Of a DNA stretch of 64,000 nucleotides, positions 1 to 54,290 are shown one piece after another. Both the position numbers and the translations under genes were made by a program. Source of the stretch: Blasia pusilla (lineage: Eukaryota); NCBI GenBank assembly GCA_050084515.1, contig CM114271.1, forward strand, positions 8,618,001-8,682,000, in the 5' to 3' direction. Position 1 is the stretch's first letter, and every line of letters begins with the position of its first letter. A model generated the notes under the pieces. The model was given only the letters and a program-made list of their open reading frames with translations. It ran no database searches and was not told the origin of the DNA.

Positions 1-437
1 AGATACACCCCGCACTTCATGAGCGCCATGTCTTCCTTGGTACTCTTGTCTGTCTACTTCCGACGGTTCTTGCGCGATCTCAACAGTGCCCTCTTTGGTA
101 AACTTTTGATAGTTCCGGGTTCTCTTGCCATGAGAAATGAGCAAACTCATGCCCCCGGTGTGACTACTCTACGCCCGATAACCGCCAGTCTTATGTAACG
201 GCCGCCTCTCCCGTAACGGCCTCTTGGCACTCTTTGTGATTTAGGGCAAAAAACTCGAGGACAACGACTCTGCTGGAAGAGACAGAGACTGCGAAGACAA
301 AGAAGGAAAAGACTCGAAGATCACCATTCCTTGTCTTTCCCGAGTCTTTGCGAGTCCTTGGAGTCCTTACTTCACCCGTATGAAATGTTTAGCGCTAGGT
401 CCTGTGCTTGCGCTTTCTCTACCCCCTCCCTCAGTCT

Positions 438-3400
438 TCAGGCAGGTGTATAATATCTTCGCACATGCATGCCATTTACCCTTGTTGGAAATGCTTCTCC
501 TTTCAATGTCTCCAATTGTAAAAAACCATTTTCAAAAATCTCCATAACCCAGTAAGGCCCCATCCAGTTTAACTTAAGCTTCCCTAGGAACTTTATACAA
601 CGGTCGGCAAAAATTAGCACCATGTCCCCTTCTCTTCTTGATTGTGGTCTCAAGTTCTTGTCATAGCGTGTCTTCCTTTGTGCTTGGACAGTCTTTATAT
701 GTCTAAGGGCAAGATGTCTTGCCTCCTCCACCGCTACCAGGTCTTTGTTCCTTTTTGCTGTGGTAGCCGACTCTTCTCCGTCCCTCTCTTCTTCTAAAAT
801 TTAGTAGGTTGGCACCTCCCATTCAATTGGAATGGTGTGTACTTGGTAGTGACTTTCTCCATATGTTGGTATACCCAGAGGGAAACAAGAATCTTGGTAT
901 CCTAGTCATATGAATAGGTGACAGTCAGGCGGTTCAAGATCCTACAAATAAGCCCATTGGACGTCTTAGTTAACCCATTAGCTTTGGGGTTGTATGGGGT
1001 AGTCTTCTTGTGATTGATCAGGAAATGGTCGGTCAAAGCTTCGATTGTCTGGTTGAGGAAATGGGTTCCTCGGTCGCTCACCAACTCCAAAGGACAGCCA
1101 TGTCTATTAATGATCATTTCATATACAAATTTAGCTAATGCCTTAGTGTCATCCTTCTTAGTAGCGACCGCTTCCACCATCTTGGTACAATAATCCGAGT
1201 GGCAGGTGAGATGGGCCCCATGAAGTCGATACCGCACTTCTTAAATGGGGTTAAGGGAAGAATAGGTACCAATGGCCAATGGGAGGTTGCCGTGGGCCTT
1301 CTTATCTTTGACAAGCATCACACTATGGTATAAAGAACCTAACATCTCGATACATGGTGGGCAACCAATAGCGTGCGGCCAAGATCTTTTTGACCATATT
1401 CTTGACCGTATTCTTAAGTGCATAATGCCCTTTTTCATCCACCTTGTGCATAGCAGCAATCACTCAAGGTACTTCCTTATTCTCCTAGCATCTCCGGTAT
1501 TCTTCGTCCACGCTAAGCTTGAATAATACCTCATGGCAGAGCTCATAAGGCCCTACCTTACCTAAAAACACTGCATGTTCTTCTGCTGTCATAGGGGCTG
1601 GAAATTTGAAAGTGACAAGGAACCGCAAAATGTCCTCGTATGAAGATATTCTCAAGGTCTCTTTGCTTATCAGGAATAGCTCCTTGTCCGGAAAATCATC
1701 TTCGAGGGTCTTCGTGAGGTCGGACTCCGGCGTTCTCAACCGTGATAGGAAATCCGCATTGGGGTGGATTTTCCCTGCCCTTGTTACCACGTCAAATGTG
1801 AACTCTTGTACCAAGAGAATCCACTGAGCAATCCTGCCTGATAAATCTGCTTTGGGCACCAAGGCACAAAGCGCAAAATGATCGACATGAAAAACAAATG
1901 GGTACCCCAGCAAGTAATGCCGGAACTTCTTGCAAGCAAAGACCATTCCCAGGTCCTCCCTCTATGTAGTAGTCTACTTTTGCTCCGTCATTGAGAGTTT
2001 ATGACATGCATAATAGATAGGGTCATCCTTCTTCTTCTCATCTAACTGAATTAGTACCACACCAATCACAAACAAAGAGATGTCTACATACACCTAGAAG
2101 GTCTTCGTTTAGTCTGGAGGCCGAAGCACAGGAGCTGTCATGAGCACGTGCTTCAACTCCTCGAATGCCTTCTGACATGCAGGCAACCACTCCCACTCCT
2201 CGGTCTTCTTCAGTAGGGTAGTTAAAGGCTTCACCTTTAGTGCATAATCTTTAATGAATCGGCGATAGTACCCCACATGCCCCAAGAACCCTCTTAGCTC
2301 ACGAAGATTTGTGGGAGCTTCCAACTCCAACATTATCTCCACTTTAGCCTATTCCACTTCGAAACCGCGTGAAGGCACCTGATGGCCCAATAGGATATCA
2401 TGCTTCATTGCAATGTAAGAGTTCTACATGTGCAAAGACAACTGCACCTCTCCGCCACGAGCCAAGGTGAGCTCTAGCTTCTGGAAGTGATCGGCGGCCG
2501 AGGTGAAGATGCAAAAGTCATCCAGGAAGATTTCTATGAACCTTCGCAAGTACTCTTGAAAGATAGAGATCATCAGTCTTTGAAAAGTGGCTGGGGCATT
2601 GCACAACCCAAAAGACATCACTCGATAAGCAAAAGTTCCCCAATCCGTGGTGAAAGTAGTCAGGGCCCGGTCCTTTTCTCTTATGGACACTTGATTGTAG
2701 CCGGAATATCCGTCCAAGAAGGTATAGCATTCATGACCAACCACTTTATCTAAGATAGTATCAATAAAGGGCAGGGGGTGATAATCCTTCAGGGTGGCCG
2801 CATTAAGCTTCCTATAGTCTTGACATACCCTGAACTTACCCGTCTGCTTCTTCAGAACAATGACTATGGGGGATACCCACTCACTACAAAGTACCGGATT
2901 AATGACTCATGCTTCCCACCTGTGATCAATTTCATCTTTGACCATTAAGGAATACTTTGGATTCAATCTATACTGCCGCATTCGCACAGGGATTGCCCCG
3001 AACATCACATCAATTCTATGCTCCCCATATTTGGCTGGTAATCCTTTCATCTCATCCATGGTGTAGGCAAACACATCTAGGTAGTTCGAAAACAAAGTTT
3101 TATATAGTGAAAGTTCAGATGAAGACAAGTGTGCAAACACACGTAAGGCTTTAGTATCGCTAATCAAGACTTCTTGGTAGTCCTTCTCTGCACTATCTTC
3201 CCGTGAACTGATAGGTAGTGAGCCCATATGGATCCTCCCTTGGACAGGACGTGCTGCGCTCAGATTGTAGAAATTCTTCATCTATCTCATAGCACTCTAG
3301 ATAGCACACATAGGACAAGGACTTTGTGTCGGCTGCCCGATCTTGATCCAAAGTATACCCTCATGTGTGGCAAGTGTCTCTCCTTGAGACGGCCAAGACT

Positions 3401-6200
3401 TCCAAGAGAACTTGACCAGCTTCTTGGAAGTACTTGATGGCGTTTGGAAAGTAAATCTTCATCTTTTCCAATCTATATTGACATGAGCCCTATAAAGCCA
3501 CGGCCTTCCAATGAGTAAGGGGCAACCTGTGACTATCAAAGGATGAAGGACAAGATAGTCCAATAGGAATAGCACCCCTCCTATCATAGTGGGTACCTGG
3601 GTAAGTTGCCCCAAGGGCCGCTTACGAGACTGATCCGCAAAGCGTAAATACTTATCGGTGGGTTCATACTTAGTGTAACCCAAAGCCTGCGCAGTTTGCT
3701 TTGTCATGATGTTGACCCCACTTTCGGAATCTATAGGCACCTTCTTGATAGTATGCCCTTCAATTTCAACCTCTACTTCCGGCGCACCAAAGTCTTCAAC
3801 TTTTATGCAGAATAGATCCACCACTAGGAGCTTCCTTGCTCCTGTCTTCTTCTGACGTCCAACCTTCCAACGTTGGAGAATTTTCCCATAAATGGGATTA
3901 TCCATAAGTAATTGCAATAAGGATATATTTTTTGGGATGGCAGCCAAATCGTTCAACAAGTTGTAAGCTTCCATCACCAAGAGGGAAGCCACCAAGGTCT
4001 CCATTTTTACTTCTTTGTGCTTGTGTAAAGGTCATGGCGTGCAGACTCCCCTTGCTTGTTCTTCCTGAACTTGGTTACGGACCTGCTTCTCTTCTTCCAA
4101 ATGGAAGTACTTCGCATGATTACCATCAAAAGCCGAGTCCTCATCACCTTTCAATAGAGCTTATCCCGCTTGGTATGTCTCAACCGCTTTCTTCGTAGAT
4201 GGAACACTCAGAGAAGAAGAAGACTTTGGGGTCTTTGCTCTCACAGTTTTCTTCTTAGACTTGGACCTAGTTTCCACTACGAAGACCTCATTGAGAAGGT
4301 CCTCGGGCCCATCTGAGGATTCTTTGTCGATCTTTGTTGCAAGGCCTCTTTCATGAATTGTCATCTTCTTTGGCAACCTTGGTGGGGTGACCTCTTCTAC
4401 ACGCACTAGCTGTATATTAACATCATTCTTGGTTTCGGTGGGTGCCGGTGGGGTGGTGATATATTTGACCAAAAGCCGTGGCTCTTGAGGTTTTGGACAC
4501 TCCACCGCTGTGTGTCCCCCCTTCTTGAAATTACCACATAGAGGATTCAACCCCACATGTCTCTTTGGGTTGAGGCAATTGTTTGTCCAATGATCGGATG
4601 CTAAAAAATTATAGGAGAAATTTCTTTTGATAGGGGGGTGAATGCTGCGGGTCCCATGATATGGCAAAGGGGCCTCTGCTCTCCATATTCAGGCGGCACA
4701 TATATGGGGTCTCCAACTTTGAGAAGTACTAGCCCCAGGAATTGCATGTACCGCGTATCATCCCTCCCGCGGGAAAGCTTCATACCATCCCTCTTCCCTT
4801 GAGGGTTCTTCTTGCATCCAACGTGAGTCTCGGTGCAATGGGCATTCCGGCATTGTATGCCCTTGAGTCCCACATGCACTGCACCAACTATATGTTAGGC
4901 TGCATAAGACGTGGCCTTCTTTGAGGGTCTTTTTGGGCTTCCAAGTGTACTTCTAATTCGGCCATTTGCTTGTCAATTCATTGATGATGGATTTATCCCC
5001 ATCCTTCTTAATCTGACGGGCGGTACTAACAGACTTGCGGCTCTCTGTCTTTGCGCTCTCGTCCTTATGCCCCTTTCCCAAAGACGAAGACCATCTTGGG
5101 CGTCTTGATTTCTTCTTCTTCTTGCCTGTGGAGTCTTCCTCAGACTATGAGTCTTGGCTCCTAGTGTTTCCTGGTGAGGTATCCAAAGAGTCAGAAGATG
5201 GCGAAGACTCCTCTAATGAAGAGCTTTTCCGCTTCCTATGATGTTTCTTCTTCCGCGTTCGCCTGGATTTCTCCAAGGCCTCGTAAGCTTCTACAGAGGC
5301 GATGACAGCAACTAACGAGTCACGCTGCTCCCTACGACAGTAGCAATCCATCTCCTTGGATAAACCCGACACATACCAATCCACCAACTACGGCACAGTG
5401 GTGTGCTCAACCTTACCACCCAAGCTCCAAAACCTCAGAGTGTACTCCCTCAAAGTCTCCTTCTTCCTTGTTTTAAGATCACAAAGGTTTGTAAGTAGGC
5501 AATCATCAAATTCGGGTCTTGTAACTCATGAAGGAATGCCTTAAGCAGGGTCTTCATGAGTGTCCAATCCAGGGTAGACCTTGTAATGCGTCAGAGGTCA
5601 ACGGGTTGCCTCAAGATTATGCTTTGTTGCACCGTCTCGATCGTGGAGTCGCACCGTCATTGTGGAGCAGAGTGTGGGTTTATTGTTGATTGAGGAGGGT
5701 ATGCCGCTGAGTGCCGCATCCCACCATCGAGGGCCGTGCCGTTCGTAGCCGTTCTGTACCGCCTGCAACGCCGCACTGTTCCGCTAGAACCGCACTGTCC
5801 ATCGAGGAGTTTTGAGCAACGTCAGTATGGGAGGAGTATGACTTGCTGGTTGGAGGAGTTATCTCCACGACCGAGTTGGGGTTGAGATTTGAAGTTGTTG
5901 AGGAGCAACATCAACATGTGTTCAGGTTATCCATTCTGGTCCTTTACCTTGCACGCGTCAAGGATTCTGGGATTTGGGTAGTTTATTTGGGGATATTGGG
6001 TTGTGTGGATGCTGAGAGCATCATTTATGTATGTGGTTTAGGGGACATAGACCTGTGTGGGATGTCTGGAGATGAGGGTAGGTTCTCGATGAGATGATAT
6101 CCTGGTCGATTTGCCGCACCACGCCGCTTGTTGCCGCACGTTACACGTCTCGGGGAGGGAGAGTGTAGATCGAGTGCCGCATGTTTGGGATGAGTGATTG
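438..6200 (-). pseudogene. gag-pol of A1 (gag ~4000-6200, PR ~3460-3800, RT ~2420-3100, RH ~1730-2110, INT ~440-1460)
   Basis: ORF fragments at 438, 902, 1485, 2109, 2424, 2907, 3459, 4161 and 5145 carry the motifs in PR-RT-RH-INT order. Confidence 0.9.
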
Positions 6201-6291
6201 AGGGATTACTTGCGAGGTTGAGAGTGATCATGTGAAAGGGGCACAAGGGCCATCACGGCCTTCTTTCAAGATTTTGTGTCGCGACCCTCAT

Positions 6292-6307
6292 GACCAAACG
6301 AGTGCCA
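6292..6307 (-). promoter_or_regulatory. Putative primer-binding site of A1
   Basis: Minus-strand TGGCACTCGTTTGGTC lies between the putative LTR and gag; the cognate tRNA was not identified. Confidence 0.5.
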
Positions 6308-6310
6308 AAG

Positions 6311-7281
6311 AGGAACATCAGAACATTAGCGTGCTCCCGCTAAGATGGTTTGCGTGTTGGAGTGGTCTCGAAGAAGAGACAAGAGACGGGACGCAAGCAA
6401 GGCTTTGCATTTCAGATGTTATGGTCATGAATGAGAAACCTGGACCAAACGCAGAACAAGACTTGAAAGGAGTTGAGTCTAGAAAGTGGGGTTGCCAAAG
6501 GAAGGAATCCGGATTTGGGACGCCACTAGCGTTTGAGAGTTTCCGATTGTATTTATGGCCATAACTTTCAGCGCCAATATGCGTTTGGATTGAACAAGGG
6601 TGCGTTAGAAGGCTTATGGAAAGTCAGTTCAAACGCACTAGAGATCATTTTAAACACATAAGCAGTGGGTGAGAAAAAACCCGAAAACAACTGTTAGTAG
6701 AGTCAGGTTGAGGGCCACAATGAAGGGCCCGACCCTCCTTTTCCAAAGGTGGGGGGTTATTGGAGAACCCCAGAAGTACTAGTAAGGGGGAAGGTCTCCA
6801 AGAGTGCTTGGAACTCGAACCCCACTTTGGGCGCCACGGGGCGGCTCAAGGGCATGGAACGGATCGAGAGTTTGGGGTTGGTTTGGAAAACCTGAACCAA
6901 GTCTATGGAGGCGATTTTAGACATCCCTCTTGGATTTCACCCCGCAACTCAATTACTTGGGTCTCGGTTTGGAACTCATACAAGGTTTGTTGAATAGTTG
7001 GGATCGCTAGGCGCGCAAGTGCCGTTTTAGGTTCCTGGATAAATCAGGAAGTCTGTTCCAAGTCTTGAAGGACTTGCCATGTTTTGGAAACTAGGAAGTA
7101 AGGAAGGTTAAGCTTGATGAGACGCCGAGTTGAGAGCTCGGTGGGTTGGAACGTTGGTTGGCCCAGACCCGACTAACAAGAGTGTGTGTTTGGGTGCAGA
7201 TTGGCGATGAGATCGTGTCCTATTGAACGTACGCTTCCGCAACAATAAAGATTGACGTTCAAGGAGAGTCGGGGCACAACA
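6311..7281 (-). repeat. Putative 5' LTR of A1
   Basis: Starts TGTTGTGCCCC at 7281 on the minus strand, is non-coding, ends at the PBS-like motif, and has a diverged homologue at 42595-42990. Confidence 0.7.
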
Positions 7282-7499
7282 TTTTGAGAGGCAAGGTAGT
7301 GGACCAGAGAGTAGCTCTGGAGGGTTTACCCTGAGTGGTGCGAGGTTTCAAAAGTCTCCACGTGAGAGACCACCTCGATCTCCTTCTGTGTCGTTGTCAG
7401 ACAAGGGGCAGCGTGTAGAGGAGTTTGTGAGCACATCGCCACACATTATGAGTGGTCCTCCCAGTTGGGCGTACAAGATGGACAATCGGGGTAGAGGAC

Positions 7500-8760
7500 C
7501 GCAATGGTTTCAAGTGCAGTAGGCACGATTGAGTTGCACGATTTCATAGCAGAGTTAGGAGTTGGTGTGACTCCCTGCGGGCTTGGAACTCTAGAGAGTT
7601 CAACCCGCTTACAACATGGAACGGTATGTTCCTGCATTTAGAGGGGGCGCCCATGGACAATTTCCACGAGTTCTCTCACAGATATGCACATGAGATCGAG
7701 ACGTGGAGGCTCTACTATGACCCACATTATGTGTCATGGATGGAGCCATTCCCAGATGAGGAGGAGGAGTCAGGAGAGGCTACTTCCTCTTCCACTAGTG
7801 ACATTTTAGGAGGGGTCACTTGCACGGGAGCAGTTGCACCGTCTAGTGGGGTTCGTCCCAGGTTCAACCCTGTGGTTGAGTTTTTTGTTGAGTTGAGGGC
7901 GAGCTACCACGGGGTACGGACGGAGAAGTTGCGGAGCATCCACGACTTCCAGAGGTGCCCGGGTGAGAGTTTGTGTGAGGCTTACACTTGCTTGCGCCGA
8001 TTGATCAACATCACTCAGGGGGTGACAGAGGCTCATGCTATCCAGTCGTGGTACGCGATGCTTGACCGGACCCTACGGACACGGGTGCGGGAGGGGGTGC
8101 TTCTTATAAACACCTCCCCTACATTGAGAGATTTTTTTAGGACCTCCGAGAACATTGAGCGCAACATGGCGGAGGAGAGCGTAGCCACCATGGATTCTGG
8201 GCGAGAGTAGTAACGATTGCCTGCACTACCTATGCAGCAACGTGGACTCCGAGATAGGTTGACTGTGGCACCACGAGCTCAAGAAGGATACCGGGGGGCC
8301 GTGCCATAGAGACTTGCGCCTTCACATGCGGCTCTACAGCAGACACCTACTATTACTTGTTGGTCATGTGGTGGAGCCCATCATCAGCGCGATTGCACTC
8401 GTCAGGGTCATGGACGTGTGCCTTAGCATGGAGGAGGAGATGGTGCTGCACCAAGAGGTTATCAGTATGACTATTGTAAGAGGTATGGTCATACACGCAC
8501 CAGGTGTTTCAATTTACATCCTGAGTTACGTCTGGACCGAGAGCAAGTAGTCGGTCCGAGTGGACCTAGAGATCGTAAACCAAGTGATCCCGTTGGGGGA
8601 CGTGGAGTTGGAGTTTCCCGACACGATGGTGGAGCTGCCCGTGGAGGAGGTAGAGTACCACCACCTAGACGTACCGAGGGAGACTCCAGATGTGAGGCTG
8701 GGATGGCTGCTCAGATACAGCAGCTACAGGAGCAGATTGCCATTATGGCATTGAGGTTAC
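7500..8760 (+). pseudogene. gag of B1 with zinc knuckle
   Basis: ORF 7626-8210 has a retrotransposon-gag-like segment (FQRCPGESLCEAYTCLRRL). CCHC knuckle CWSCGGAHHQRDC at ~8358-8396 and a second degenerate knuckle at ~8465-8510. Homologous to 59358-59965. Confidence 0.85.
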
Positions 8761-9328
8761 TCAATGCCGGATCCGAGGCATCGATATCATATGGAGCGGC
8801 CAGAGATCTGGAGGATCCAAGTTGGATGTGCGGGGTTGCCTAGATGGAGGCAGCCGTAGTTGTGATGGGTGGAGCAACGGCAGAGTTGGATCCATAACGA
8901 GGGGAAGCCAAGAAACATACTAGGCTTCCTCAGTCTTTCACGTTGTCTGAGGCGATGAGGACCCCATCGATGGGTCTTGATCAGAGTTCCTGGAGAGTTG
9001 GTGATGTTGTTGGTGTGCAGGCACGAAGGGCGATGGGAGAAGCAAGTTCAACGACTCCTATTGTTGATGCTTAGGAGGGGCATGTGTCGAGCACGTTGTT
9101 AGGGGCCGCCACCGTTGTGTACCGCACTCCTTTATTTTCTACTTCCGATGTTATGACGTTGGGGGTACGCCCGCCGAGGCTTTTTGGCTGGCCGCTTCAC
9201 TATGTGAGCGCGGATTTGGAGTTCTCGCATCACGTTTAGAGGTGATTGTAGAGGAGGTGATGGACTTGCCCTTGGAGTTGATGCTCGGGTAGTCCACGTT
9301 AGATTCATGGTAGGATTCGGCTGCTAGG

Positions 9329-9720
9329 ATGGCGGAGATGCCCACTAGACCCGCAATAGAGCGTGCCATGGCTTCTCCTGGTGTTGTCTTGCTAGATAAC
9401 CGAGGAGCGGTCTTGCAATTGGTGAGTCTCGGAGGTAGAGCTTTTAGTCCGGAGCGCGTCTTGTTGGATTCAGGAGCGCAATCCCTGATGTTGGGGAAAG
9501 CGTCATTCAGAGGATTGGGCTTGACGAGAGCCGATGTGGAGCGTTGTCCATTCCAGATATAGACTTCCTTGGGTGGAGCGAGTACCACACATTATATCAC
9601 CCGACAAGAGTTCATGGTGAAGATTCGCCCAGGACATCCTACAGATGAGTCCATGGTGCGAGCCAAGGCGATAGTGACTGATGCAGAGTCCTACAACGTC
9701 TTGGTTGGTGGAGGAGTGAA
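9329..9720 (+). pseudogene. Aspartic protease of B1
   Basis: VLLDSGAQSLMLG active site and downstream YNVLVG; homologous to 62350-62760. Confidence 0.85.
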
Positions 9721-9789
9721 GAACCCAAGGTAGCATGGAGTGCTACGATGACACCCTTGGATACCACACCCATTGTGTGGTGTATCCCG

Positions 9790-10003
9790 GAGGAGGGTAT
9801 TTGAGTGTTAGATCTCTTTGGAGGGATTAGCACCCGGTTAGCCGCTATTTTGCAGGTAGAAAAGCGAGTGCACCAGTATCTATATGTGGAGAGTGATGAT
9901 GTTGCAAGGCGTGTCTCACTACGACATGTGGCAGAGTTATGCCTACATTTTCCCAACTTATTATCTGCGTCCGCGGTACAGGGGTACCAGAGTTCCCTAC
10001 CGA
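9790..10003 (+). pseudogene. C5 DNA methyltransferase domain of B1, N-terminal part (motifs I-II)
   Basis: VLDLFGGIS (SAM-binding motif I) and YLYVESDDVARRV; collinear with 63160-63360. Confidence 0.85.
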
Positions 10004-12364
10004 GACCAAAGCGCGGCAGGGTCAATTTCGAAACACCCTCGGAACCAGAACCCACAATTCAAGAGGACTCCGACGAGACGCCTCGTGCTAGCGATCACCG
10101 TCCTGCATTTTGTCTCATGTCCCAGACAGCCAACGACATGGTGTGGTTCCTGAATTTAGCTGTCCCAGTCATGAATCAACTTCAACATGTTCTCCACCTG
10201 GAAAACACAACGATGGTGGACGAGTATTTACAAGCCCTTGATGACCTCAACTGTAGGGCCCAAGCTTCGTCAGAGAACAAAGCACAACGCAAAGTGGCGG
10301 AACAAAATCTTCACCTGTGGGATCAAGAACTCGAAGACACGAAGTCCACGCTTCGCAGAGTTCAAAGCGACTTGGTCCAGAGTCAGTACGAAGCACGGAA
10401 CACACGCCAATGGGAGAGCTTGGCGATTAACCTAGAGTGTGGAGCTGATCAATTAGCTTCGCAGGTCAAGGAAGCTTCGCAACTTATTCAACAATATCGA
10501 CACCAGATGCATCGTGTTAGCAATGAATTCAAGAAATTGGCCACACAACATGCTCAATCTACGAAATTGCTTCAAGAACATCAAGAAACGAACAGAGACT
10601 TAGTGGCGTAGTGGTCAGAGGCTACAGGGAGGATCGTTGTCTTGGAGGCAGAACAGAAGCTACTCAACAAAGTACACTTAGATCCAGAAGATGTCAAGGA
10701 GTTAGTCGACGAAGCAAGCAAGAATTTTGAACAACAGATGAGCGAAGAGATTGACTATGTCAACAAACATTGGAAGCGCCAATTCGACAACCATACGAAG
10801 TCTCTCCCGGAAGTTGTTCCCAACCTCTCAATTACTTTTGAAGAAATACCATTATTTACTCCATTTGATGTCTTAGTCCAGAACAAAGTATTAGGAAGTA
10901 AACTAGTTGTTAATAAATCACGAGAAAGAATGCGCAATCACACCCCCAACATTATCAACAAACCTTCAACTATTCACGGTGGTTTTGCGCCTACATCTGA
11001 GTTTGATAGTTTAGAGGATACTTTTATGGAGTTAGAAGAAACATCCTGATGTGTTCGCCGGGGCGGCTCACATTTGAGGGAGCGGGTATGTGATACCCAT
11101 AATTTTGTACTTTTGAAGAAATATATCTTTTTATTCAACGAAGACTCTTGTACTTTATGATTTTGATTATTTATTATTATGAGGAGGAATGAGTAAGATT
11201 AAAGTGAATTACGAAGCTCCAAGGACAAGGCAGAGAGATAGAAAATCAAGGATTTGCCTAAGAGGAGAGGAGAATAGAATAACGAAGTCTCAAGACCCAG
11301 CAAGAAGCTTCGGAACTATAACGAAGCTCAACGAAGCTCTGTCTACAAAGTGCTTTGCTTTATAAAGAAGCATAATGATGCAGGAAGAAGAAGAGAAAGA
11401 AGTACTTCGCTCTTGTACGAAGCACCTGGAACCCGAACAAAGAATGAAGAGCTTCGTCTTCTGATCAGGAGAAAGAGCTTCCTCCTCAAGCGAACCAAAA
11501 GAGGTCCAGACTTAGCAGCAAAGCGAAGCTAAGATTGACAGTGATTTCAAGCGACACATAGTTAGAACAGTTAGAATAGGAAGAGACGCAACCCTTTGTA
11601 TCAATTTGGTAGTTATGACTATTTTGTTCTGCAAATTCATAGGGATCATAGGAAAAGCAAAGAGCACCATAGATCTAGGTAGTTACAAAAGTTGAAGAGA
11701 CACCAGCTTCATCAAGAACGTTTCGAATCTTTGGATCACTCCTCCTTCAAGGAGTATTTAAGAAAAATAGAAGTAGCTATCATTATCATTCTCTTACGAA
11801 GTCCTCATGCTGTAGGAATGGTCCGAGCAAGGGAGTAGTACCCTCTCGAGCTTGTATACACTTTGAAGCTTTCTCATTCTTGATGGAGTAGTAAAGCAAT
11901 CATTCATTCATTCTGATGTGCGATGTTTATGTCTGAGTATTCTTTTTGGGTCTATAGAGTGAAGAGTGAATGAGGCGAACCTTTCTCATCAATGGAATAA
12001 TCAACATAAAGATTGTAGGAAATTTGTTTGACAGAGAGTAGCCTGCCGAGACGGATTGAGTTCCGAAAGTAGGAGAAGCCAGCTTTCATGTTGAGGTCTC
12101 TGTGAGGTTTCTTGATATCGAGAGGAAATCTACCTGAGCATGCTGTCAATTCCACTAGAGAGAATTGAGAAAATAAACTTTGGTACTAAGAAAGATCTGA
12201 AGATATTGATACGACATTGAATATAAATCATACACATTTAAATACACCTATTACAACATAATTGTAATTTTGAACTCTCTTTTCATCAAAAAATGATCCT
12301 CCTGGGGATCGAACTCAGTAAACGATTGTAAAATAGAAACTCTTATACATTACATATAGCTACA
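10004..12364 (+). mobile_element. LTR retrotransposon family C, 3' fragment (coiled-coil extra ORF, PPT, LTR) inside the B1 methyltransferase
   Basis: Abrupt switch out of B sequence near 10004; Q/E/K-rich ORF to 11049 with one stop; purine tract GAGGGAGCGGG just before the LTR at 11089. Confidence 0.8.
11089..12364 (+). repeat. Family C LTR
   Basis: TGTGATACCC...ATAGCTACA; highly similar inverted copy at 38849-40094 and a fragment at 57508. Confidence 0.92.
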
Positions 12365-12384
12365 AACTTTTTTGTTGTCGCGGG

Positions 12385-13111
12385 TTGGCTGACACTTGGA
12401 CCAGGTTGATTTGGGAGATGTTGAGGATCTTACGATAGTTGCAGGAGCACATGTCTCCTTCTGGAGAATGTGCCGATCTTAGGAGACTCCAGGTAACGGA
12501 TGGTGACAAGTGCTCATCAGGTGCGTGCCTGGATTGGCCCAAAAATGTTATTGCATGTGGCAAGTATAGGTTCTAGAGCCCATCGCCCGCATCTATGGTG
12601 GACCAACTTGATGCCCCATGCAGTGTTACGAAGGACGTATGCGAGAGTGGAGCGCCCCTCCCATTTGTTAGTGGATTCCATTCTGGATCCAGGTCATCGC
12701 TCACAGGCAGTGAGGCATGATGATCGACCACCGTTGACTGTGGTCAACAGGATAGGCAAGCCGCAGGCAGCCTTTCCCACATTTGTGAGTTTTCTCGCTT
12801 CCTATGCATACAAGGAGGCCGGTCTTGGCTTGGTTTGGGATGACCAAGTTCAAAGGTTGGTGGAGCCCACCGCCAATGAGAGAGAGCGGGCGGTGGGATT
12901 TCCCATAGGAGTGACGGCAGTACCGTCAGTATCAGAGGCATCACGATGCCATGTCTTGGGTCAGGCGATGGACATCAACTGCTTGACATGGATCTTCAGC
13001 TTGGGAGTGGCTGAGCAGCGTCAGATGAGATCACGACAGATCACATTGGTTGCGTTGGTGAGCCCCATGCCTACCAAGACGGTGGAGGTAGTGGCTGGGG
13101 GCGAGACCTGA
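12385..13111 (+). pseudogene. C5 DNA methyltransferase domain of B1, C-terminal part (motifs VI, VIII, IX, X)
   Basis: LLENVP near 12460, SIGSRAHRPHLWWTNL, EPTANERERAVGFPIGVT and SRCHVLGQAMDINCL. These match the DNMT3-family pattern ENV / AHRARYFWGNL / EMERVFGFP..YT / RQRLLGRSW. Confidence 0.88.
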
Positions 13112-13309
13112 GGAGATCGACACACCAAGGGAGATTGGGAGAGACACCCTTGGACTTCTTGGGATGTTTTGCAAGTACGCCAGGAGATGATAGTCACAAC
13201 ATCATGCGTGGTTTTGAGCACTGCATGTGGAGGAGATCAGAGTTTGTAGTTGGCAATAGGAGAGCGGCCGAGTGTTGTTGTTCGAGAAGGGGTTGCACCA
13301 TAGCAACCA

Positions 13310-16300
13310 TTGATATCCGCGTCGGAGAGTCCTACCGTAGTCACGATGGAGACTTGGGAGCGAGATATGGGCCCTAAGCTCACAAGAGGAGAGCGGCGCC
13401 GGATACATCAATTCCTCATGAGTTGTAGGAGCTGCTTTGCATTTAGCATGGAGGATTTGGGTACGTTGAAAGGACCGGGGATCCGCATTGAGTTGTCGAG
13501 TGATACGCCGATCTTTCGGAGACCCTATAAGTACAGTGATATGGAAAGGGCTCTATTCAGAGTAGGAGCCAGGACTAGTGGAGATGTTGCATGGGGAGTA
13601 TGCATTTGCCATTGTCATGCCCGCCAATAAGGATGTACATGGCAACTAGATGGATAGGCGACTGTGTAGGGATTACTGACCTATCAATTGGCAAAAGAAG
13701 TCCAATAGGTATGCCATGCCCACCGTTGAGGAGATCTTTGATGCGATTGGTCACGCAAAGGTCTTCAGTTCATTGGATTTGCGAGCTGGATACCATCAGT
13801 TGCTTATCAGATTGGAGGACAAGCAGAAGACAGCATTTTGGGGCATCGATCCTCACGGGAAAGATTGTTTGTACCAGTGGCGGTTCTTACCATTTGGGTT
13901 AAAGAACGCCTCGACGGAGTTTCAAAGGGTCATGGATAGAATCTTGGATGGTGTGGATTTTGCTGTGTGTTATATTGATGACATTATAGTCTTTGGCGCC
14001 ACGGTTGAGGAGCATGAGCAACGATTGCAATTACATGGGCTGAAGCTACATCCAGGCAAGTGCAAGTTCTTCTACGACCTGATTGAGTACTTGGGTCATA
14101 CGATATACCCAGGGGGCCTTGGTGTTCAGCAGACAAAGGTAGAGGCTATCTCACGCATTCCATGCCCTACAGATGTGAGCCGTGCTCGCGCATTCATGGG
14201 ATTGGTGAACTTCTATCGGTGGTACGTCAAGGGATTCACTTCGATTGTGCAGCCGCTAACCTTGCTGACCAAGGTGGATCACAAGTGGCACTGGGCGGAT
14301 AAGCAAGAGCAAGCATTTCAGTTGCTCAAGGACAAGTTGACGTCTGCGCCCATCTTGAGGAGACCGATCACGGGGCGTCCTTTCCATTTGCACATAGATT
14401 GGAGCATGTTGGGGCTTGAAACAGTGCTCACCCAGCATGATGATGAGGGTAGAGAGTTCATGGTGGCTTACGCTAACTGCTCAAACAACGCTGTAGAGGC
14501 AAAGTACAGCTCGTATGAGGGTGAGTGCTTGGATGTAGTGTGGGCTGTCGCACATTTCAGGTGGTACTTATTCGGAAACCCCTTTACCATCATCACTAAT
14601 CATCAACCACTGAAGTGGTTGATAGAGTCCGACAAGCTTACAGGGAAGCTTGTGAAATGGGCTCTGTTGTTGCACGAGTATGATTTTCAGGTGGTACATA
14701 GACTTGGGACGCTTAACCAGAATGCAGATAGATTGAGTCGTAACCCGTGCCCGAGTTAGCGAGATGCGACTGGAGCTCGATGGCATGGAGAGAGTGATGA
14801 GGAGTTAGTGCCAGGATGGCACGCGACAGCCTATTTAGGCATGTTGGCTATGGAGAGCCAGAGTGTGGAGACTTCAATGGCAAGGTCTAGTGGAGAGTCC
14901 TTGGATCCTGAGGCTAGTGAGGAGAGCACATGTGGCCGAGATATTCATGATGATGGAGTAGTCTTGGAGTACCATCGTACTCGCAGCGTTGTGAGCACCG
15001 TGGGTGCTAGAGAGCGGGACCGGATCCTACAGCGGGCCAGACGGTTCCGTTGGGAGGGGACACATGTTTTGAGGATTTGGGAGGATGGCACTGTACGCAT
15101 AGTGCCGCAACCTTTGTAGAGAGCACAACAAGTGCAGCATGCCCAGGAGGAGTTGGGTCACTTTGGGGTGAAGCGGACATACAGCTTGCTCTAGATTCTG
15201 TATTGGTGGAGAGGCATGCAGACTGACGTTCAGCAGTTTGTTGCCAGATGCATGGTGTGTGATCGGGTCCGAGCATCGTTGAATGCTCCGATTCCACAGT
15301 TGCATCCATTACCTATCATGGGCTTAGGGTATAGATGGAGTTTGGATTTTGCAGGACCTTTGCCTTTGACGGAGCGTCACAATCGTTATGTGTTGGTGAT
15401 GGTTGAGCACTTCTCGAAGTGAATCGAGTTGGTTGCATTTCCTGACAAAGTGAGTGAGAGAGTAGCTTATGCCTTCCTTGATAGAGTGATGAGTCATTAT
15501 GGCACACCGGCTGAGGTGTTCATAGATCATGGTACCGAGTTTCATGGTGAGTTCCACGCCTTGTGTGATCAGGCGATGATCGACCACCACACAACTTCAT
15601 GAGATCATCTTGAGGCGGATGGATAAGCAGAGAGAGTTGTGCAGACGGTGAAGAGGGGTTTACGCAAGTATGGCTTGCAAAGAGGTCACGTAGGAGATTG
15701 GGATCTCCAATTGCCATGGTTGGCGATGGGATACATATTTACCAGGCACACATCCTTAGCATCTTTTTCCCCGTACTTGCTACTTTGTGGTCGAGAGCCA
15801 GATTTACCTGCGGCCATTTGTCGAGATGCTGGTGAGGTGCTGGACCTTTATGACCTAGATGTATGGATCCGAGCATGTTCTCAGAGGGCTAAGTTGTTTC
15901 GGAGAGTGATGCCCATGGCGTTTGAGACCTTGGCGATTGTGCATCATGGGGATACGTTGAGGTATGCAACTATTTGGGGTGGTGGTTATCAACCAACCAT
16001 TTAGAGGTTTCATCAAGGAGATTATGTCTACTTGCAGCAGACGGCACCCACGACGTTGGATGTGACTGCAGGGCGCACTATCTTGAGAGTGCGTGACGTT
16101 TTGCCATCTGGTATTCTCTTGCTGGAGGGACACGATGGTATGGTATGGAAGGACCATGTGCCTAATTTTGCGCCATGTCACCTTCCTAACATTGATGGTA
16201 CAGTAGATCCGAGCTTAGCAGTAGTTCCTATAGGCTTGCGTTGTATGTTGTGTGGTTCTGCTCGTGGTGCGGCCACAATGCTAGTATGTGATGGATGTTC

Positions 16301-16382
16301 GAGAGGTTGGCATATGGCGTGTCTGAAGCCACCTCTCATTGGGGTTCCTCGGGGACAATGGATGTGTCCCAGATGTACATAG
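13310..16382 (+). pseudogene. RT, RNase H, integrase and C-terminal PHD finger of B1
   Basis: SLDLRAGYHQ, LPFGLKNA, YIDD; RNase H YSSYEGEC and NQNADRLSR; integrase H2C2 (LGHFG...CMVC) and WSLDFAGP; C4HC3 PHD at the end. Confidence 0.93.
16242..16376 (+). other. PHD finger at the integrase C-terminus of B1
   Basis: CMLC-x10-VCDGC-RGWHMAC-LKPPL..VPRGQWMCPRC, a complete C4HC3 ligand set. Confidence 0.92.
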
Positions 16383-16570
16383 AGGAGATACTACGTAGGT
16401 TTTGATTCCAACTTTTTCCGTGATATGGATGACAGGAAAGCGACTAACAATGGGGCCACATGAGCACTTGGCCTTTATGCTCTTAGCGTCCTAGAGATGT
16501 ATGTCATGGTAGGTAGGGATAGATGGCTATCTAGAGTTAGAGAGACCTAACCACCAGCTAGGGGGGCGAT

Positions 16571-16696
16571 TGGAGATATTTTAGTACTTCTTCTCTCGTT
16601 GTTTGGATGCCATGAGTTAGCATGGGATCGTACGTGTTTGTGTGTGTGTTCGGTGACAGCGATGTATGTTATGTAGTGATGTGTATGTGCACGACA
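16571..16696 (+). repeat. Internally deleted family B LTR (TG plus the last 124 bp)
   Basis: Directly follows the PPT; 16573-16696 is a close copy of 17216-17339. Confidence 0.8.
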
Positions 16697-16698
16697 AT

Positions 16699-17339
16699 TG
16701 TCACGTCTTTTAGGATAGATTGGTGAGATCTAGTAGAGCACCTTCGTGAGTAGTGGAGGACAGGATCAGTAGGTCGAGGATGACCTGCTGAGGCCCCGGG
16801 AAACCTGAGAGAGCAGGTTTCCTTTTGTTCAGCTCATTTGGAGCCATATTGAGCAACTTACTATTTTAGGTAAGTTCCATTTTGAGTATATTATGGACTT
16901 TCTATTTTTTGTAAGTGGCCCTTGACCTTCTACATCAGATCAAGAGCCAAGGAGGTGACTTGGAAGAATAGGTTACCATGGAGAGAGCTTGGGAGAGGGG
17001 AGGGGTATACCTCAAAGAGAGAGAGTTTGAGAGCTCATTCTCTCTTTGTTAAACCTCTTAGCATGAGGCGGCGGAGCTATGCTCCCTTGCCCTGTGAGTG
17101 TAACCCAAGCCTCTCATTAGGAAAGTGGGTTTGGTTTGACGTGAGAGAGAGTGCACACCTTTGAGAGCTATGGTGTGAGATGGTGTAGAGAGAGAGATTG
17201 CATCTTACTTTATAAGAGATATTTTAGTATTTCTTGTCTCGTTGTTTGGATGCCATGAGTTAGCTTGGGATCGTGCGTGTTTGTGTGTGTGTTTGGTGAC
17301 AACGATGTATGTTGTGTAGCGATGTGTATATGCACGACA
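16699..17339 (+). repeat. Family B LTR (~640 bp)
   Basis: TGTCACG...GCACGACA termini; family D coding sequence begins immediately after 17339. Confidence 0.8.
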
Positions 17340-22654: not shown

Positions 22655-27720
<5,066 letters not shown>

Positions 27721-46805: not shown

Positions 46806-49800
46806 CTAAATTCAATATAACAACATTACTTTCAAGATGATAGATTTTACTGATCAACCTATTAATTTCCTCCCACACTAGGAAAAATAAGATAAAGAGA
46901 GTCGTCCTAAATATTCACATCCAAGGAATGTGATATCAGGATCATAGATATAGAGGGCAGCGTGACTCATTAGCACCCGTCATTGCCTCTACCGGAGCTT
47001 ACTAGGCCTCAGAAAAATCCAGGAGGACGCGCAAGAAGAGACATTATCGGAAGAGGACAAACTCTTCATCAGAGGAGTCTGAGTCTTCGTCTGACTCCTC
47101 ACATATCTTGTCAGGAAGCACTAGCAGTGAAGACTCAGAGTCTGAGGAAGACTCTAAGGGCAAAAAGAAGAAGAAATCAAGATGCCTTAGACACTCTTCG
47201 TCCTTGGGAAAAGGACGTAGGGATCAGAGCATCGCAAGTTGATGAGTCCTGCTCGTAAGACAGAGAAGGATGGGGAAAAGTTGGCCATCAGTGAGTTGAA
47301 AAAACAAATGGCCGATTTAAAAGTACATTTGGCGGCTCAAAAAGACCCCTAAGGTCTTATGTGGCCTAATATATGATGTACTGCTTGTGGGACTCAGGGG
47401 CATATAGTGCCAGAGTGCCCACTGAAACAAGATTTACGTTGGATGGAAGAAGAATCCTCAAAGGAGGAGGGGTGGTATGAAGCCGACCAGTAGGAAGGAT
47501 GTTATGCGGTTCAATTAGTTCTTGAGGCTAGTACTTCTTGCAGCTCAATCTCGAGATACGTGCCGCCAAAATTTGGAGAGCAAAGGCCTATACGACAAAT
47601 CATTGGACCCGCAGCGTTCACCCCACCAATTAAGAGGAATTATTGTTAAAATTACGGGGCAATCGATAATTGGGCAAACAATGGTCTTAACCCAAAATGA
47701 CCCGTGGGTTTGAATCCCCTATGTGGAAATTGTAAGAAGGGAGGACATACTGTAGTAGAATGTCCATAGCCTCAAGTTCCCTGGTTCTTTATCAAATATG
47801 TCACCACCCCACCGTCCCCCACCGAAGCCAATAATGATGTTAATGTGCAGCTAGTACGTGTGGAAGATATTACCTCACCCAGGAAGGCAAGGAAGGTGAC
47901 AATTGTAGAAGAAGGCCCAAAAATGAAGATTGAAGAAGAGTCCTCCGATTGGCCCGAAGACGTTCTCAACAAGGTCTTCACAATGAATATCAGGTCCAAG
48001 TCTAAGAAGAAGACTGTGAGGATGAAGACCCCAGAGTCTTCATCTTCGCAAAGTGTTTCGTCTACAAAGAAAGCGAGTGAGACATTTTGAGCATGGAAAG
48101 CTGTTCTAAAAGGCAAGGAGGACCCGACTGTTGATTGCAATCATCCGAAGTACTTCTACCCAAAAGTTGAGAAGCATGTCCGTAATCAAGTTCACAAAGA
48201 ACAAGCAAGTGGAGTCTTCGCACATGGCGTCTAACCCCATCACAAAGAAGGAAAAGTAGAGACCACTGTCGCTTCACCCTTGGTGATGGAAGCTTACGAC
48301 TTATTGAAATATTTGGCTACCAGTCCGGCAAAGATATCTTTATTGCAATTATTCATGGATAACCCCATTTATGGGAAAATACTCCACCAGTGGAAGGTTG
48401 GACGTAAGAAGGAGCGTGCAAAGAAGCTCCCGAGGTTGAAGACCTGGGTGCCCTGGAAGTGGAAGTAGAGATTGAAGGATAGACCATCAAAAAGGTCCCT
48501 ATAGATTCTGGAAGCAGGATCAACATCATGACAGAGCAAACTACTCAAGCCTTGGGTTACACTAAATATGAACCTACAGATAAATACTTACGCTTTCTTG
48601 ACCAGTCTTGCAAGCGACCTTTGGGGCAACTCACTCAAATCCCCAACATGATAGGGGGAGTGTTATTTCTCTTGGACTATCTTGTCCTTCAGCCTTTGAC
48701 AGTCACCGGTTACCCCCTGCTTATTGGGAGACTGTGGCTCTATGGAGCTCAGGATAACACGGATTGGAAGAGACAAAGATTAACTTTCCAAGCACCGTAC
48801 AGTACCCCAAAGAAGTTGGTGAAATTATCATGGAAATCTCGGCCTTCTCAAGGAGAGACACCGACCACAGATGAGGGGTATACCTCATATCAAGACCAGA
48901 CAGTTGACACAGAGTCCTCGTCCTATGTGTGCTACTTGGAGTGTTATGAGATAGATAAAGAGTACCTACAACTAGAACAAAGTAAGTCCTTTCTAGGAGA
49001 GGAGCCATCTGGGCTCACTACATATCAGTTCACATAGAAGATGGTGCAGGAGAAAGACTACGAAGAAATCCTTATCACTGACACTAAGGCTTTGCGTCTA
49101 TCCACAGATTTTTCTGCGTCTGAACTTTCACAATATAAAACTTTGCTTTCGAAGTACCTTGTTGTGTTTGCCCACACCATGCATGAGATGAGAGGAGTGC
49201 GAGCCAAGTATGGAGAACATAGAATTGATTTGAAACCTGACGCACTTCTTGTGCAAATAGGTGAGTATAGGTTAAACCCAAAGTACTCTTTAATGGTCAA
49301 AGACGAAATTGATGAGAGGTTGGAAGCTGGAGTCATCTATCCGGTGCTCAATAGTGAATGGGTATCCCCCATAGTCATTGTTCCGAAGAAGAAGACATGG
49401 AAGATCCGAGTATGTCAAGATTCTAGGAAGCTTCATGTGGCCACCCTTAAGGATCACCACCCCTTGCCCTTTACGGACACTATTTTAGATAAGGTGGTCG
49501 GCCATGAAGGCTATACCTTCTTGGACGGGTATTCTCGTTACAATCAAGTATCTATCAGAGAGAGGGACCGAGCCCTGACTACCTTCACCACGGATTGGGG
49601 TACTTTTGCCTATCGAGTGATGCCTTTTGGGTTGTGTAATGCCCTGGCCACTTTCCAAAGAAAGATGATTGCTATCTTCCAAGACTATTTACGAAGATTC
49701 GTAGAGATCTTCCTATATGACGTTTATGTCTTCAACTCGGCCAAAGATCATTTGTAGAAGTTAGAGCTAACCCTGGCTCGGTGCCGAGAAGTGCAGCTAT

Positions 49801-52030: not shown

Positions 52031-52118
52031 GCGATAATGTGAAAGGAGCGACAACGCGCTCTCAGTCCAGCTCCTGAAGTCCTGGACTGAGAGCGCGTTG
52101 TCACTCATTTCACATCGC
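52031..52118. repeat. Long hairpin between pol and the extra ORF of A2
   Basis: Perfect 21-bp stem 52050-52070 / 52082-52102 with an 11-nt loop and an imperfect extension. Confidence 0.9.
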
Positions 52119-52215
52119 AAGAAGCCTGAGTAACCTCAAGAGCCGACCAAAGAAAACTTTGCACCGGTATCACAAGAATCGTAGGAAGCAGGCCAGTTTG
52201 TGTAGAGAGGGAGAC

Positions 52216-53340: not shown

Positions 53341-54244
53341 AATCTTTGGGAGATCATGTAAAGATGAGCCATTGCTCTCCTCCATGTGTTCCCTGAAAAT
53401 GTAAGTTCAAAGACCTATAAGAGACATAAAAAAACATACCCAAAAGACCATATGCAAGTGATGGGTCTTGGTGGATACCTAAAATATTGCATTTGCATCA
53501 GTTTCATGTGGTGTTTTCTTTACATCTTTGAGAGCTAAAAGAGTGTATTTGAAAGATGACTCAAATAATGATGTATGAACTTGAACTTGAACTTGAATTC
53601 TCAATCTAAATATGGAGAGCTAGGTGGAAATCTTGAGGGCATAAATTCTATGTGTGATTCCTGGATGCTAAGAGATTCAAAAGACGGAATCGTATAATAA
53701 GCTGATCTAAACATGGACTTAAAACTCTACTTGTAGTGAGCTATAATTCCTAGGATTGTAGCATAATTCTTAAGATACCACCTTGATTCCCTTGACCTCC
53801 GCCAGCAAATCATAATAGCACACATGGGGACTATGGTTGCAAGGCTACAATAGACGCTAATTTTGAGTACAAACATTTTTGTGCAGGACACACGCATTTG
53901 TCACCCGCACTTCTACACCACCAACTCTTAACCCGACTGTATTTCTCTATTTCTGGACCAACCCTATATGCATTCAAGTTCTGTTGTAGTTGACACGGAG
54001 AGAGATGGTGATACTACATGTCACATGCTCATACCACATGTCATGTTTTCGTCTAACAAAAATTGTAAGTTCAGAAAATATCCAAGCAGAGAAGCTAGAG
54101 TTATGAGTTTACCTTCTGAAATACTTTACATTGAAGATACAATAACCAAAGACCTTACATGGGGTGATCGTCAGGAATGTGACATTTCATGATAAAAGTT
54201 GGACACATCAATAGCAAATTGTATCTGGCCATGTGCATACCATC
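53335..54244 (-). pseudogene. Three phase-compatible exons of an unidentified host gene (54244-54113, 53478-53440, 53392-~53335)
   Basis: Canonical AG/GT sites, all phase 1; reads GWYAHGQIQFAIDVSNFY...SISEGIHQDPSLAYGLLGNTWRRAMAHLYM with two stops. Confidence 0.5.
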
Positions 54245-54290
54245 CTGGCTAGTAACCACATCACACTTTAAACATGAGAAAACGTGGTAC

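Follow-up and report, generated by a model that had tools for sequence, protein, structure and literature searches.

What is a PHD finger doing at the end of a retrotransposon integrase, at the place where chromoviruses carry a chromodomain? The question is raised by a 64,000-nucleotide (nt) stretch of the genome of Blasia pusilla (contig CM114271.1, positions 8,618,001 to 8,682,000 of the forward strand), which we analysed as a whole and refer to as the window. It contains an element with the gag-protease-reverse transcriptase-RNase H-integrase order of Ty3/gypsy retrotransposons, together with a DNMT3-like DNA methyltransferase (MTase) and, at the very end of pol, a PHD finger. We find that the finger is a real, selected appendage of the integrase of a known element type, Gypsy-DNMT3. 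With moderate confidence, we further propose that it is a native C-terminal module of the integrase in an old green-lineage clade of Ty3/gypsy-type elements with a DNMT3-like MTase, where it would tether the integrase to unmodified histone H3.

The finger lies at the end of a 125-codon open frame (window positions 16005-16379, + strand), closed by the terminal stop of pol, a TAG at 16380-16382 (+). The ligands of this frame follow the pattern C80-x2-C83-x11-C95-x2-C98-x4-H103-x2-C106-x14-C121-x2-C124, with only T125 before the stop, and all eight C4HC3 ligands are intact at canonical spacing. Pfam recognised PF00628 (PHD) over residues 80-124, which correspond to nt 16242-16376 (+), with an E value of 6.8e-12; the match covers profile positions 1-47 of 47 and scores 45.7 bits, the cut-off being 24 bits. 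When all six frames of the 64 kb window were searched with a C4HC3 regular expression, this same site was the single match, and 50 mononucleotide shuffles of the window gave none. Given the Pfam score and the single regular expression match against none in the shuffles, the PHD is genuine and lies far outside what chance would produce. It is in the same frame as the reverse transcriptase, RNase H and integrase, and 13572-16376 forms one tblastn segment with 60% identity to the pol of an intact relative, locus L038; against a second relative, the protein P0043, the identity of the same stretch is 47%. The original prediction of a complete C4HC3 PHD ending pol is therefore borne out by the ligand pattern, the Pfam match and the terminal stop. 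The interval it gave (16032-16382) does contain the finger but also spans part of the beta-barrel tail in front of it, the PHD proper being restricted to 16242-16376.

Within the window copy, a TAG at 16002-16004 (+) parts the finger from the integrase core, and annotations of Marchantia give free-standing 'PHD-type domain' proteins. Both facts would suit a finger foreign to the element, either a captured host exon or a chance juxtaposition in a decayed copy. We hold this explanation to be refuted and give it practically no weight, because the picture in other copies is quite different. In the alignment with relatives the TAG is a sense codon, which marks it as a decay stop, and the junction is open in the intact ORFs (open reading frames) of loci L038 and L032 (1047 amino acids, aa) as well as in P0213, a single polyprotein of 2811 aa. 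The unit of barrel and PHD was found in 166 confirmed metagenome stretches. Moreover, between the intact copies L031, L032 and L038 the ratio of non-synonymous to synonymous substitution (dN/dS) in the PHD is 0.04-0.13 at a dS of 0.14-1.8, as low as in the adjacent barrel, and the PHD is thus under strong purifying selection in intact copies.

The breadth of the family points the same way. A search with the 125-aa tail for longer proteins returned 63 homologues, 57 of which carry PF00628, while the six without it span only 22-81% of the query; the named sources at 72-80% identity were Marchantia polymorpha, Calypogeia fissa and Sphagnum fallax. An exhaustive search gave 7072 cluster representatives at E<=1e-3; 931 of them reached E<=1e-10 and 21 reached E<=1e-30. 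Among the best 150, most match the whole barrel and PHD unit, in proteins of up to 3456 residues, and in all 30 long representatives scanned the integrase zinc domain is followed by a PHD. PF00628 was also present in 118 of the 120 listed green-algal-type relatives, some of which are named from Haematococcus lacustris. In the protein atlas the matches were confined to generic Gypsy clusters, which scored below 0.9 and carried little taxonomic information. Metagenome contigs were scanned as well: of 211 candidate stretches 166 were confirmed, and 80 loci, many of them decayed, were kept; counts of these loci are not independent, because some regions were assembled repeatedly (L005/L006, L028-L030, L046-L048, L058/L060). 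Far from being absent from most copies, the finger is reached by the tblastn match in all 80 loci, except where the contig ends. Its eight ligands are in frame in 51 loci (40 without a stop inside the finger and 11 with one), and the other 29 comprise six cut by contig ends (L045, L053, L072, L073, L076, L077) and 23 in which a ligand is substituted or the frame is shifted.

Several annotated bryophyte proteins turned out to be pieces of this integrase tail. They include Mp_1g18210, Mp_3g00200, Mp_5g07880, Mp_7g09570 and MARPO_0060s0038 of Marchantia and, likewise, Calypogeia fissa proteins and BDL97_02G004000 of Sphagnum fallax. These proteins are 221-612 aa long and annotated as 'PHD-type domain' or hypothetical, and one of them (P0023, Mp_7g09570) joins MTase pieces to the PHD. 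Several 'PHD-type domain' models of Marchantia, Calypogeia and Sphagnum are element fragments and have no place in a count of host chromatin readers. The PHD is followed by more than 60 residues in 35 of 86 family proteins. Such extensions are frequent in the algal clade, where they comprise 100-450 residues without a Pfam match; those of P0057, P0060, P0063 and P0183 gave none at E<=0.05. The precomputed lists of some algal-type members contain a G-patch (PF01585). One 1974-aa protein with reverse transcriptase, RNase H, integrase and PHD (P0315) bears the NCBI label of a 'Minisyncoccia bacterium' metagenome-assembled genome, its contig probably being mis-binned.

The position of the finger within the integrase is equally informative. 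The region between the decay stop and the finger (16005-16241, +), with the sequence 'GDYVYLQQ...CHLP', is part of the integrase C-terminus. Residues 1-60 of the tail are predicted by AlphaFold2 (AF2) to form a four-stranded small barrel with its strands within residues 7-50, and many alignment columns of the barrel are invariant across relatives. The fold matches of residues 1-58 to SH3 and Tudor domains are weak (Z 4.4-5.1), and for this reason we use the label SH3/Tudor-like only tentatively. Another Gypsy family is present in the window as two copies, at 49080-51900 (+) and 3221-441 (-), with 29-30% identity to the pol of the PHD family. Its integrase ends with a comparable barrel module (51622-51900), and no PHD or chromodomain-like extension is visible behind it. 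Since that integrase ends after the barrel, the PHD is an extra module appended behind the integrase C-terminal barrel. In chromoviruses the chromodomain sits after the integrase C-terminal barrel. By this comparison the finger, which follows the barrel at the extreme C-terminus of the integrase, does occupy the chromodomain position, as had been proposed. A chromodomain itself was not matched by Pfam in the window tail, and Chromo (PF00385) appeared in the precomputed Pfam lists of none of the 63 homologues and none of the 120 listed relatives.

What, then, does the finger read? By sequence and by fold, the closest solved PHDs are readers of unmodified H3, namely ATXR5, BAZ2A, UHRF1, KDM5 PHD1, ORC1b and DPF2/3. 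Residues 75-125 of the AF2 model matched the ATXR5 PHD in complex with H3 with a Z score of 9.5 and a root mean square deviation (rmsd) of 1.4 Å over 51 residues, and further fold matches were DPF2 (Z 8.6) and ORC1b with unmodified H3 (Z 7.9). Foldseek assigned a probability of 1.00 to the PHDs of DPF3, ATXR5 and UHRF1, and aligned BAZ2A with an unmodified H3K4 peptide at an rmsd of 1.1 Å. The H3K4me3 readers ARID5, TAF3, YNG2 and PHF23 reached only Z 4.4-4.9. The best sequence matches in the PDB were PHF12 PHD2, CHD4 PHD2, KDM5 PHD1 (Lid/5B/5A), KMT2D and DPF3, with ATXR5, PHF21A, AIRE, UHRF1 and BAZ2A/B further among them. Taken as a class, the PHDs that bind unmodified H3 (KDM5A/B PHD1, BHC80/PHF21A, AIRE PHD1, ATXR5, BAZ2A/B, UHRF1 and DPF2/3 PHD2) share 36-50% identity with the finger over 45-50 residues, the finger differing from them in that it belongs to a transposon integrase and not to a host chromatin regulator. 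Most superpose at 0.7-1.6 Å, and KDM5B PHD1 and one MOZ chain at up to 2.2 Å.

The finger also resembles this class in the residues that matter for binding. In PHDs with a methyl-lysine cage, the available text of PMC4225485 places a Trp two residues before the ligand His and an aromatic residue before the first Cys. The window has G101 and R79 at these positions. Of the 86 family proteins, 83 have a Gly in place of the Trp, and only two have an aromatic residue in front of the first Cys. The lack of an aromatic cage, noted from the sequence in the original prediction, is therefore a family trait. For KDM5B PHD1 bound to H3K4me0, the same part of that paper describes a salt bridge from D328 to H3R2, backbone pairing through L324-L326, binding of H3A1 by W351, a hydrogen bond from D308 to H3K4 and a contact of E321 with H3T3. 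In our sequence alignment, in which the KDM5B residue numbers are our own count, D96 corresponds to D328, M92-V94 to L324-L326 and W119 to W351, so that the counterparts of the H3R2, H3 backbone and H3A1 contacts are conserved; D96, M92 and W119 are invariant among 20 relatives.

A number of observations weigh against our reading and have to be set beside this agreement. E321 of KDM5B aligns with A89 and, in an ungapped extension of the alignment, D308 aligns with I76; both acidic residues are thus unmatched in the clade of the window. The loop between the second and third Cys contains no Asp or Glu in the window; it is acidic in 73 of 86 family proteins (of the 'PDDE' type in the algal clade) and without an acidic residue in 13. 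Another residue could serve as the H3K4 contact. The mean pLDDT of the AF2 model, its per-residue confidence measure, is a moderate 69.5, with 75-85 over the PHD blocks. The match to PHF12 PHD2 comes from a SIN3B complex, and a non-histone partner is therefore possible. Finally, the relatives were retrieved through the PHD-bearing tail, and lineages without a PHD would have been missed.

Some of these points lend substance to the view that the finger is a non-histone interaction or structural zinc module. Its partner might be a host chromatin factor, another subunit of the integrase or a nucleic acid, and it might, for instance, aid assembly or nuclear import. The lost acidic H3K4 and H3T3 contacts of KDM5B PHD1 would fit such a role, as would the fact that the top sequence match is a component of SIN3B complex structures, and atypical targets of PHDs are listed in the available part of a review (PMC10124903). 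We nevertheless consider it unlikely, because the Asp after the third Cys that is typical of H3 binders, the hydrophobic strand and the Trp of the P-x-G-x-W motif are invariant in the family alignment, and because the nearest folds are PHD-H3 complexes at an rmsd of 0.7-1.6 Å. Binding of the H3 N-terminus is accordingly a well supported prediction from the sequence and the modelled fold, whereas selectivity for unmethylated H3K4 is a plausible one. The earlier hint at unmethylated H3K4 stands as far as the missing cage and the company of unmodified-H3 readers are concerned, but the counterpart of the acidic KDM5B D308 is missing in the window's clade.

On the reading that we prefer, a tether of the integrase to H3, the finger would act as follows. 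Read-through of a TAG behind the MTase and subsequent processing by the protease would yield an integrase carrying the small beta-barrel and the PHD. The PHD, having no methyl-lysine cage, would bind the N-terminal tail of histone H3 with K4 unmodified, through beta-strand pairing by M92-V94, contact of Asp96 with H3R2 and a pocket for H3A1 formed by Trp119. The integration complex would thereby be tethered to nucleosomes without H3K4me3, and insertion would be biased away from active promoters. The finger probably tethers the integrase to unmodified H3 tails, as a functional parallel to the chromodomain of chromoviruses.

The MTase of the element offers a second conceivable partner for the finger. 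In animals, the ADD domain of DNMT3A, DNMT3B and DNMT3L is a cysteine-rich reader sensitive to H3K4 methylation, and it is encoded together with a DNMT3-type catalytic domain. PHD and MTase might similarly constitute an element-encoded equivalent of ADD, which would read chromatin unmethylated at H3K4 and direct or license the methylation of a new copy or of its neighbourhood, targeting of integration being secondary or absent. The affinity of the MTase would suit this idea, since among solved structures it comes closest to DNMT3B, 3A and 3C (E about 1e-6), as against 4e-5 for M.HaeIII; PF00145 was recognised in the intact relatives P0043 and P0213 (1.3e-9). The available text of de Mendoza et al. 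2018 (PMC5890265) further describes de novo CG methylation by retrotransposon DNMTs.

The co-occurrence of PHD and MTase, proposed earlier as a check on their pairing, proved to be strong. With the MTase of the intact locus L038 as a probe, an MTase was found in 33 of the 41 loci that have at least 4100 nt upstream of the tail. Six of the eight negative loci (L016, L046, L048, L059, L062, L079) also miss the protease and have a truncated reverse transcriptase, and are uninformative because they are 5'-truncated; in the near-identical L058 and L060 the protease abuts the reverse transcriptase, with no MTase and a decayed PHD. Where the protease was found, the MTase was present in 28 of 30 loci. 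A phmmer search with the MTase of P0043 detected it in 24 of the 30 long representatives at greater distance; of the six without a match, three start too near the integrase to tell. All four proteins returned by an MTase-only query carry a PHD. This co-occurrence is mostly one-directional, the sequences other than these four having been fished with the PHD-bearing tail, alone or with MTase and integrase, and common descent alone would yield it. As judged from sequence, the link between PHD and MTase is one of evolutionary co-inheritance, and co-occurrence does not demonstrate functional pairing.

The elements show two architectures. The window, the elements of the L038 type and P0043/P0213 share the order gag-PR-MT-RT-RH-IN-PHD (PR, protease; MT, MTase; RT, reverse transcriptase; RH, RNase H; IN, integrase), the DNMT3-like domain of this bryophyte type (P0043/P0213) lying between protease and reverse transcriptase. 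A distant clade with 39-50% identity, some of whose members are named from the green alga Haematococcus lacustris, has the order RT-RH-MT-IN-PHD, and the DNMT3-like domain of this algal type (P0057, P0060, P0063 and others) lies between RNase H and integrase. Between the two architectures, the MTases match with E values of 1e-25 to 1e-41, much better than they match animal DNMT3. A single acquisition of the MTase followed by its relocation is likely on this comparison, which was made with animal and not with host plant DNMT3s. Within pol, the MTase has apparently changed its place and the integrase-PHD has not, the PHD being contiguous with the integrase tail in both architectures. Since the PHD is fixed to the integrase and the position of the MTase has changed, the constant partner of the PHD is the integrase, which tells against an ADD equivalent. 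In the algal clade the MTase does lie directly N-terminal of the integrase-PHD, and a fused MT-IN-PHD protein is conceivable there.

In the clade of the window the two domains are about 1,000 residues apart and are further separated by a conserved stop and by presumed protease cleavage. In loci L038 and L032, gag-PR-MT and RT-RH-IN-PHD share one frame that is broken only by a single TAG, located at 5083-5085 and 4661-4663 with the contexts TAG-CAG-TTA and TAG-CAA-TCA, respectively. The window has an in-frame TAG at the same junction (13301-13303, +) in the context TAG-CAA-CCA, and of the 33 sequences compared there, the window and 32 loci, 29 have TAG or TAA followed by CAA or CAG. In the lineage of P0213 there is no break, and the whole is one frame of 2811 residues. 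UAG-CAR-YYA is the read-through context of the tobamovirus type. The junction stop resembles this signal and is a putative leaky stop and a candidate for read-through. If it is leaky, the MTase, lying upstream, would be made with Gag and protease as an abundant product, and the IN-PHD, made only after read-through, would be a rare one.

With this stop and the RT-RH-IN stretch between MTase and PHD, a fused, ADD-like pairing appears unlikely in the family of the window. ADD itself is a composite of a GATA-like and a PHD part, whereas the finger described here is a canonical single PHD that sits on the integrase, with a stop codon and three enzymes between it and the MTase. Of the pairing suggested in the original prediction, the co-occurrence stands, but shared descent suffices to explain it, and we think it improbable that PHD and MTase act together as an equivalent of ADD. 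A looser partnership is also conceivable, in which the PHD places copies in H3K4-unmethylated chromatin and the MTase, made in excess, methylates them, the two forming a kit co-inherited since before the split of chlorophytes from the ancestor of land plants. That the pair was retained although the MTase relocated (PR-MT-RT in bryophytes, RH-MT-IN in algae) would speak for selection acting on both together. We put this forward as a speculative suggestion and have doubts about it; if it were true, the element would choose and then reinforce its own silent niche.

The remaining parts of the window element were assigned mainly by comparison with its intact relatives. A decayed gag-like region spans 7551-8840 (+); the gag of L038 matches 7551-8531 by tblastn with 20% identity (E 4e-8), and a CCHC-type zinc knuckle (C-x2-C-x4-H-x4-C) is encoded in the ORF at 8427-8840. 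Gag knuckles are likewise found in the intact polyprotein P0213, followed by protease, MTase, reverse transcriptase, RNase H and integrase. The aspartic protease lies at 9314-9709 (+), where the protease parts of P0213 and L038 match from 9314/9323 to 9709 with 36-41% identity, and its DSG motif is readable as 'LLDSGAQ' in the ORF translation. The MTase is split into two pieces. The N-terminal piece at 9778-10005 (+), with motif I visible as 'DLFGGIS', matches residues 2-77 of the L038 MTase (38% identity, E 8e-12), and the C-terminal piece at 12458-13024 (+) matches its residues 143-331 (47% identity, E 4e-50). The gap between these matches, 10006-12457 (+), is a foreign insert of 2.45 kb, and the region of the catalytic PCQ loop, which corresponds to residues 78-142 of the relative's MTase, is missing from the window copy. 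Pfam gave no match on the window MTase fragments, which were recognised only by tblastn with relatives. Within the foreign DNA, 11089-12372 is a dispersed repeat with further copies at 40094-38841 and, in part, at 57510-57687; the ORF at 9805-10608 continues beyond MTase motif I as unrelated sequence that looks like a coiled coil. Reverse transcriptase and RNase H occupy 13307-14756 (+) by Pfam and tblastn, the ORF at 13680-14759 matching RVT_1 (1.7e-20), RT_RNaseH (1.5e-27) and RT_RNaseH_2 (5.2e-27). The zinc-binding and core regions of the integrase, with in-frame stops, were located at 15011-16001 (+) by tblastn against L038 and P0043.

Seven in-frame internal stops lie between 13680 and 16379, including the TAG at 16002-16004, and the single tblastn segment across 13572-16376 implies that there is no frameshift there. 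With these stops and an MTase devoid of its catalytic-loop region, the window copy is a dead relic and performs none of the proposed functions now. Many related loci likewise show Cys-to-Tyr changes of the ligands and premature stops. Seven stops without a frameshift over 2.7 kb, together with Cys-to-Tyr changes, look like the transition-driven decay of methylated DNA.

The 3' end of the element consists of a conserved block and repeat units. Directly 5' of the terminal repeat lies a conserved block (16544-16570, +) that contains AGGGGGG and ends in AGGGGGGCG; L078, L040, L012, L049 and L075 share its core with 100% identity over 26-27 nt, and the block fits a candidate polypurine tract. The expectation that the PHD lies upstream of such a tract agrees with the position of this putative one. 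The block is followed by a 124-nt repeat unit B1 (16573-16696, +), a 519-nt unit A2 (16697-17215, +) and a second unit B2 (17216-17339, +), which is 93% identical to B1 and with which the element ends on its 3' side; each B unit closes with ...CACGACA. In locus L078 the full layout is A1 ... B1-A2-B2 (1774-2096; 10549-11091), with the A unit at 10668-10980 matching the 5' unit at 1774-2096 with 89% identity, and B1/B2 pairs also occur in L021, L037 and L056. A1, the 5' partner of A2, was not found in window positions 1-9000, and a sensitive blastn search with the 3' tail gave no match in 1-9000 or 52000-64000. The window element has thus lost, or never shows, A1. Canonical long terminal repeats (LTRs) were considered and dropped, as no LTR pair flanks the element within the window and split direct repeats are present instead. 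The element has these split repeats although it encodes a DDE integrase.

A further, diverged copy of this type of element begins at about 59343 (+) and runs to the end of the window at 64000, with tblastn matches to gag (59343-59789), protease (62325-62753) and MTase (63263-64000, 43% identity). It is about 70% diverged and in the same orientation, and the end of the window cuts it within the MTase, before the reverse transcriptase and PHD. Elsewhere in the window, two long (CT)n microsatellites (22741-22904 and 27660-27718) have the same sequence of about 40 nt upstream of each, with 91% identity, and probably mark where two copies of another repeat end.

The closest known element is KnitGypsy-Dnmt3, the 'Gypsy-DNMT3' of streptophytes, from Klebsormidium nitens. 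As described in the accessible parts of PMC5890265, it has a Gypsy-type pol with a DNMT3-related MTase inside the polyprotein and, according to the legend of Fig. 4, DIRS-like terminal repeats in place of two LTRs, which recalls the A1 ... B1-A2-B2 layout found here. Its host is a charophyte alga, whereas ours is liverwort-like, and the likeness rests on the published description and not on sequence; no Klebsormidium nitens protein appeared by name among the listed homologues of the tail, MTase-only and 120-relative searches. A PHD is not mentioned in the main text or in one text supplement of PMC5890265, the latter containing none of the terms 'PHD', 'Gypsy' and 'integrase', though Fig. 4c and the PDF supplements may show the architecture. 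We found no account in the literature of an integrase-end PHD in Gypsy-DNMT3 or bryophyte elements, which does not prove that it is unpublished. DNMTs in retrotransposons are known from PMC5890265 and are restated in the parts available of PMC12344493 and of a 2026 preprint (10.64898/2026.05.21.726589); the preprint has elements with chromodomain, DAM and DNMT, and no PHD.

PHD fingers in retrotransposons are also already known. They occur in the polyproteins of REM1 and Gypsy-7a_cRei of Chlamydomonas and of CR1 long interspersed nuclear elements (PMC6673714, PMC8557442, PMC9940879), and the consulted portions of PMC8557442 and PMC9940879 describe the PHD as a common accessory domain of Chlamydomonas reinhardtii transposable elements, proposed to limit harmful insertions. 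For the active Gypsy-7a_cRei, intergenic insertions at 2.6 times the expected frequency are reported (PMC9940879). The portion of that paper available to us lists the PHD of this element between RNase H and integrase and mentions no methyltransferase, in both of which it differs from the family described here. Chromoviruses (Gao et al. 2008, as cited in the accessible text of PMC6673714) share with this family a histone reader at the integrase end after a small barrel, and a proposed steering of integration by chromatin state; the reader there is a chromodomain and here a PHD, and the predicted ligand here is the unmodified H3 N-terminus and not H3K9me. CopiaMBD is a further LTR retrotransposon with an epigenetic reader thought to guide integration but, according to the same text of PMC6673714, it is a Copia element with a methyl-CpG binding domain and is confined to arthropods.

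The family thus adds a second kind of histone reader at the chromodomain position, a PHD predicted from its sequence to be of the unmodified-H3 class, across a large and old green-lineage clade whose elements also carry a DNMT3-type MTase. It would provide a testable system for the way in which transposons read and write host chromatin, and Marchantia polymorpha already has named fragments of the family.

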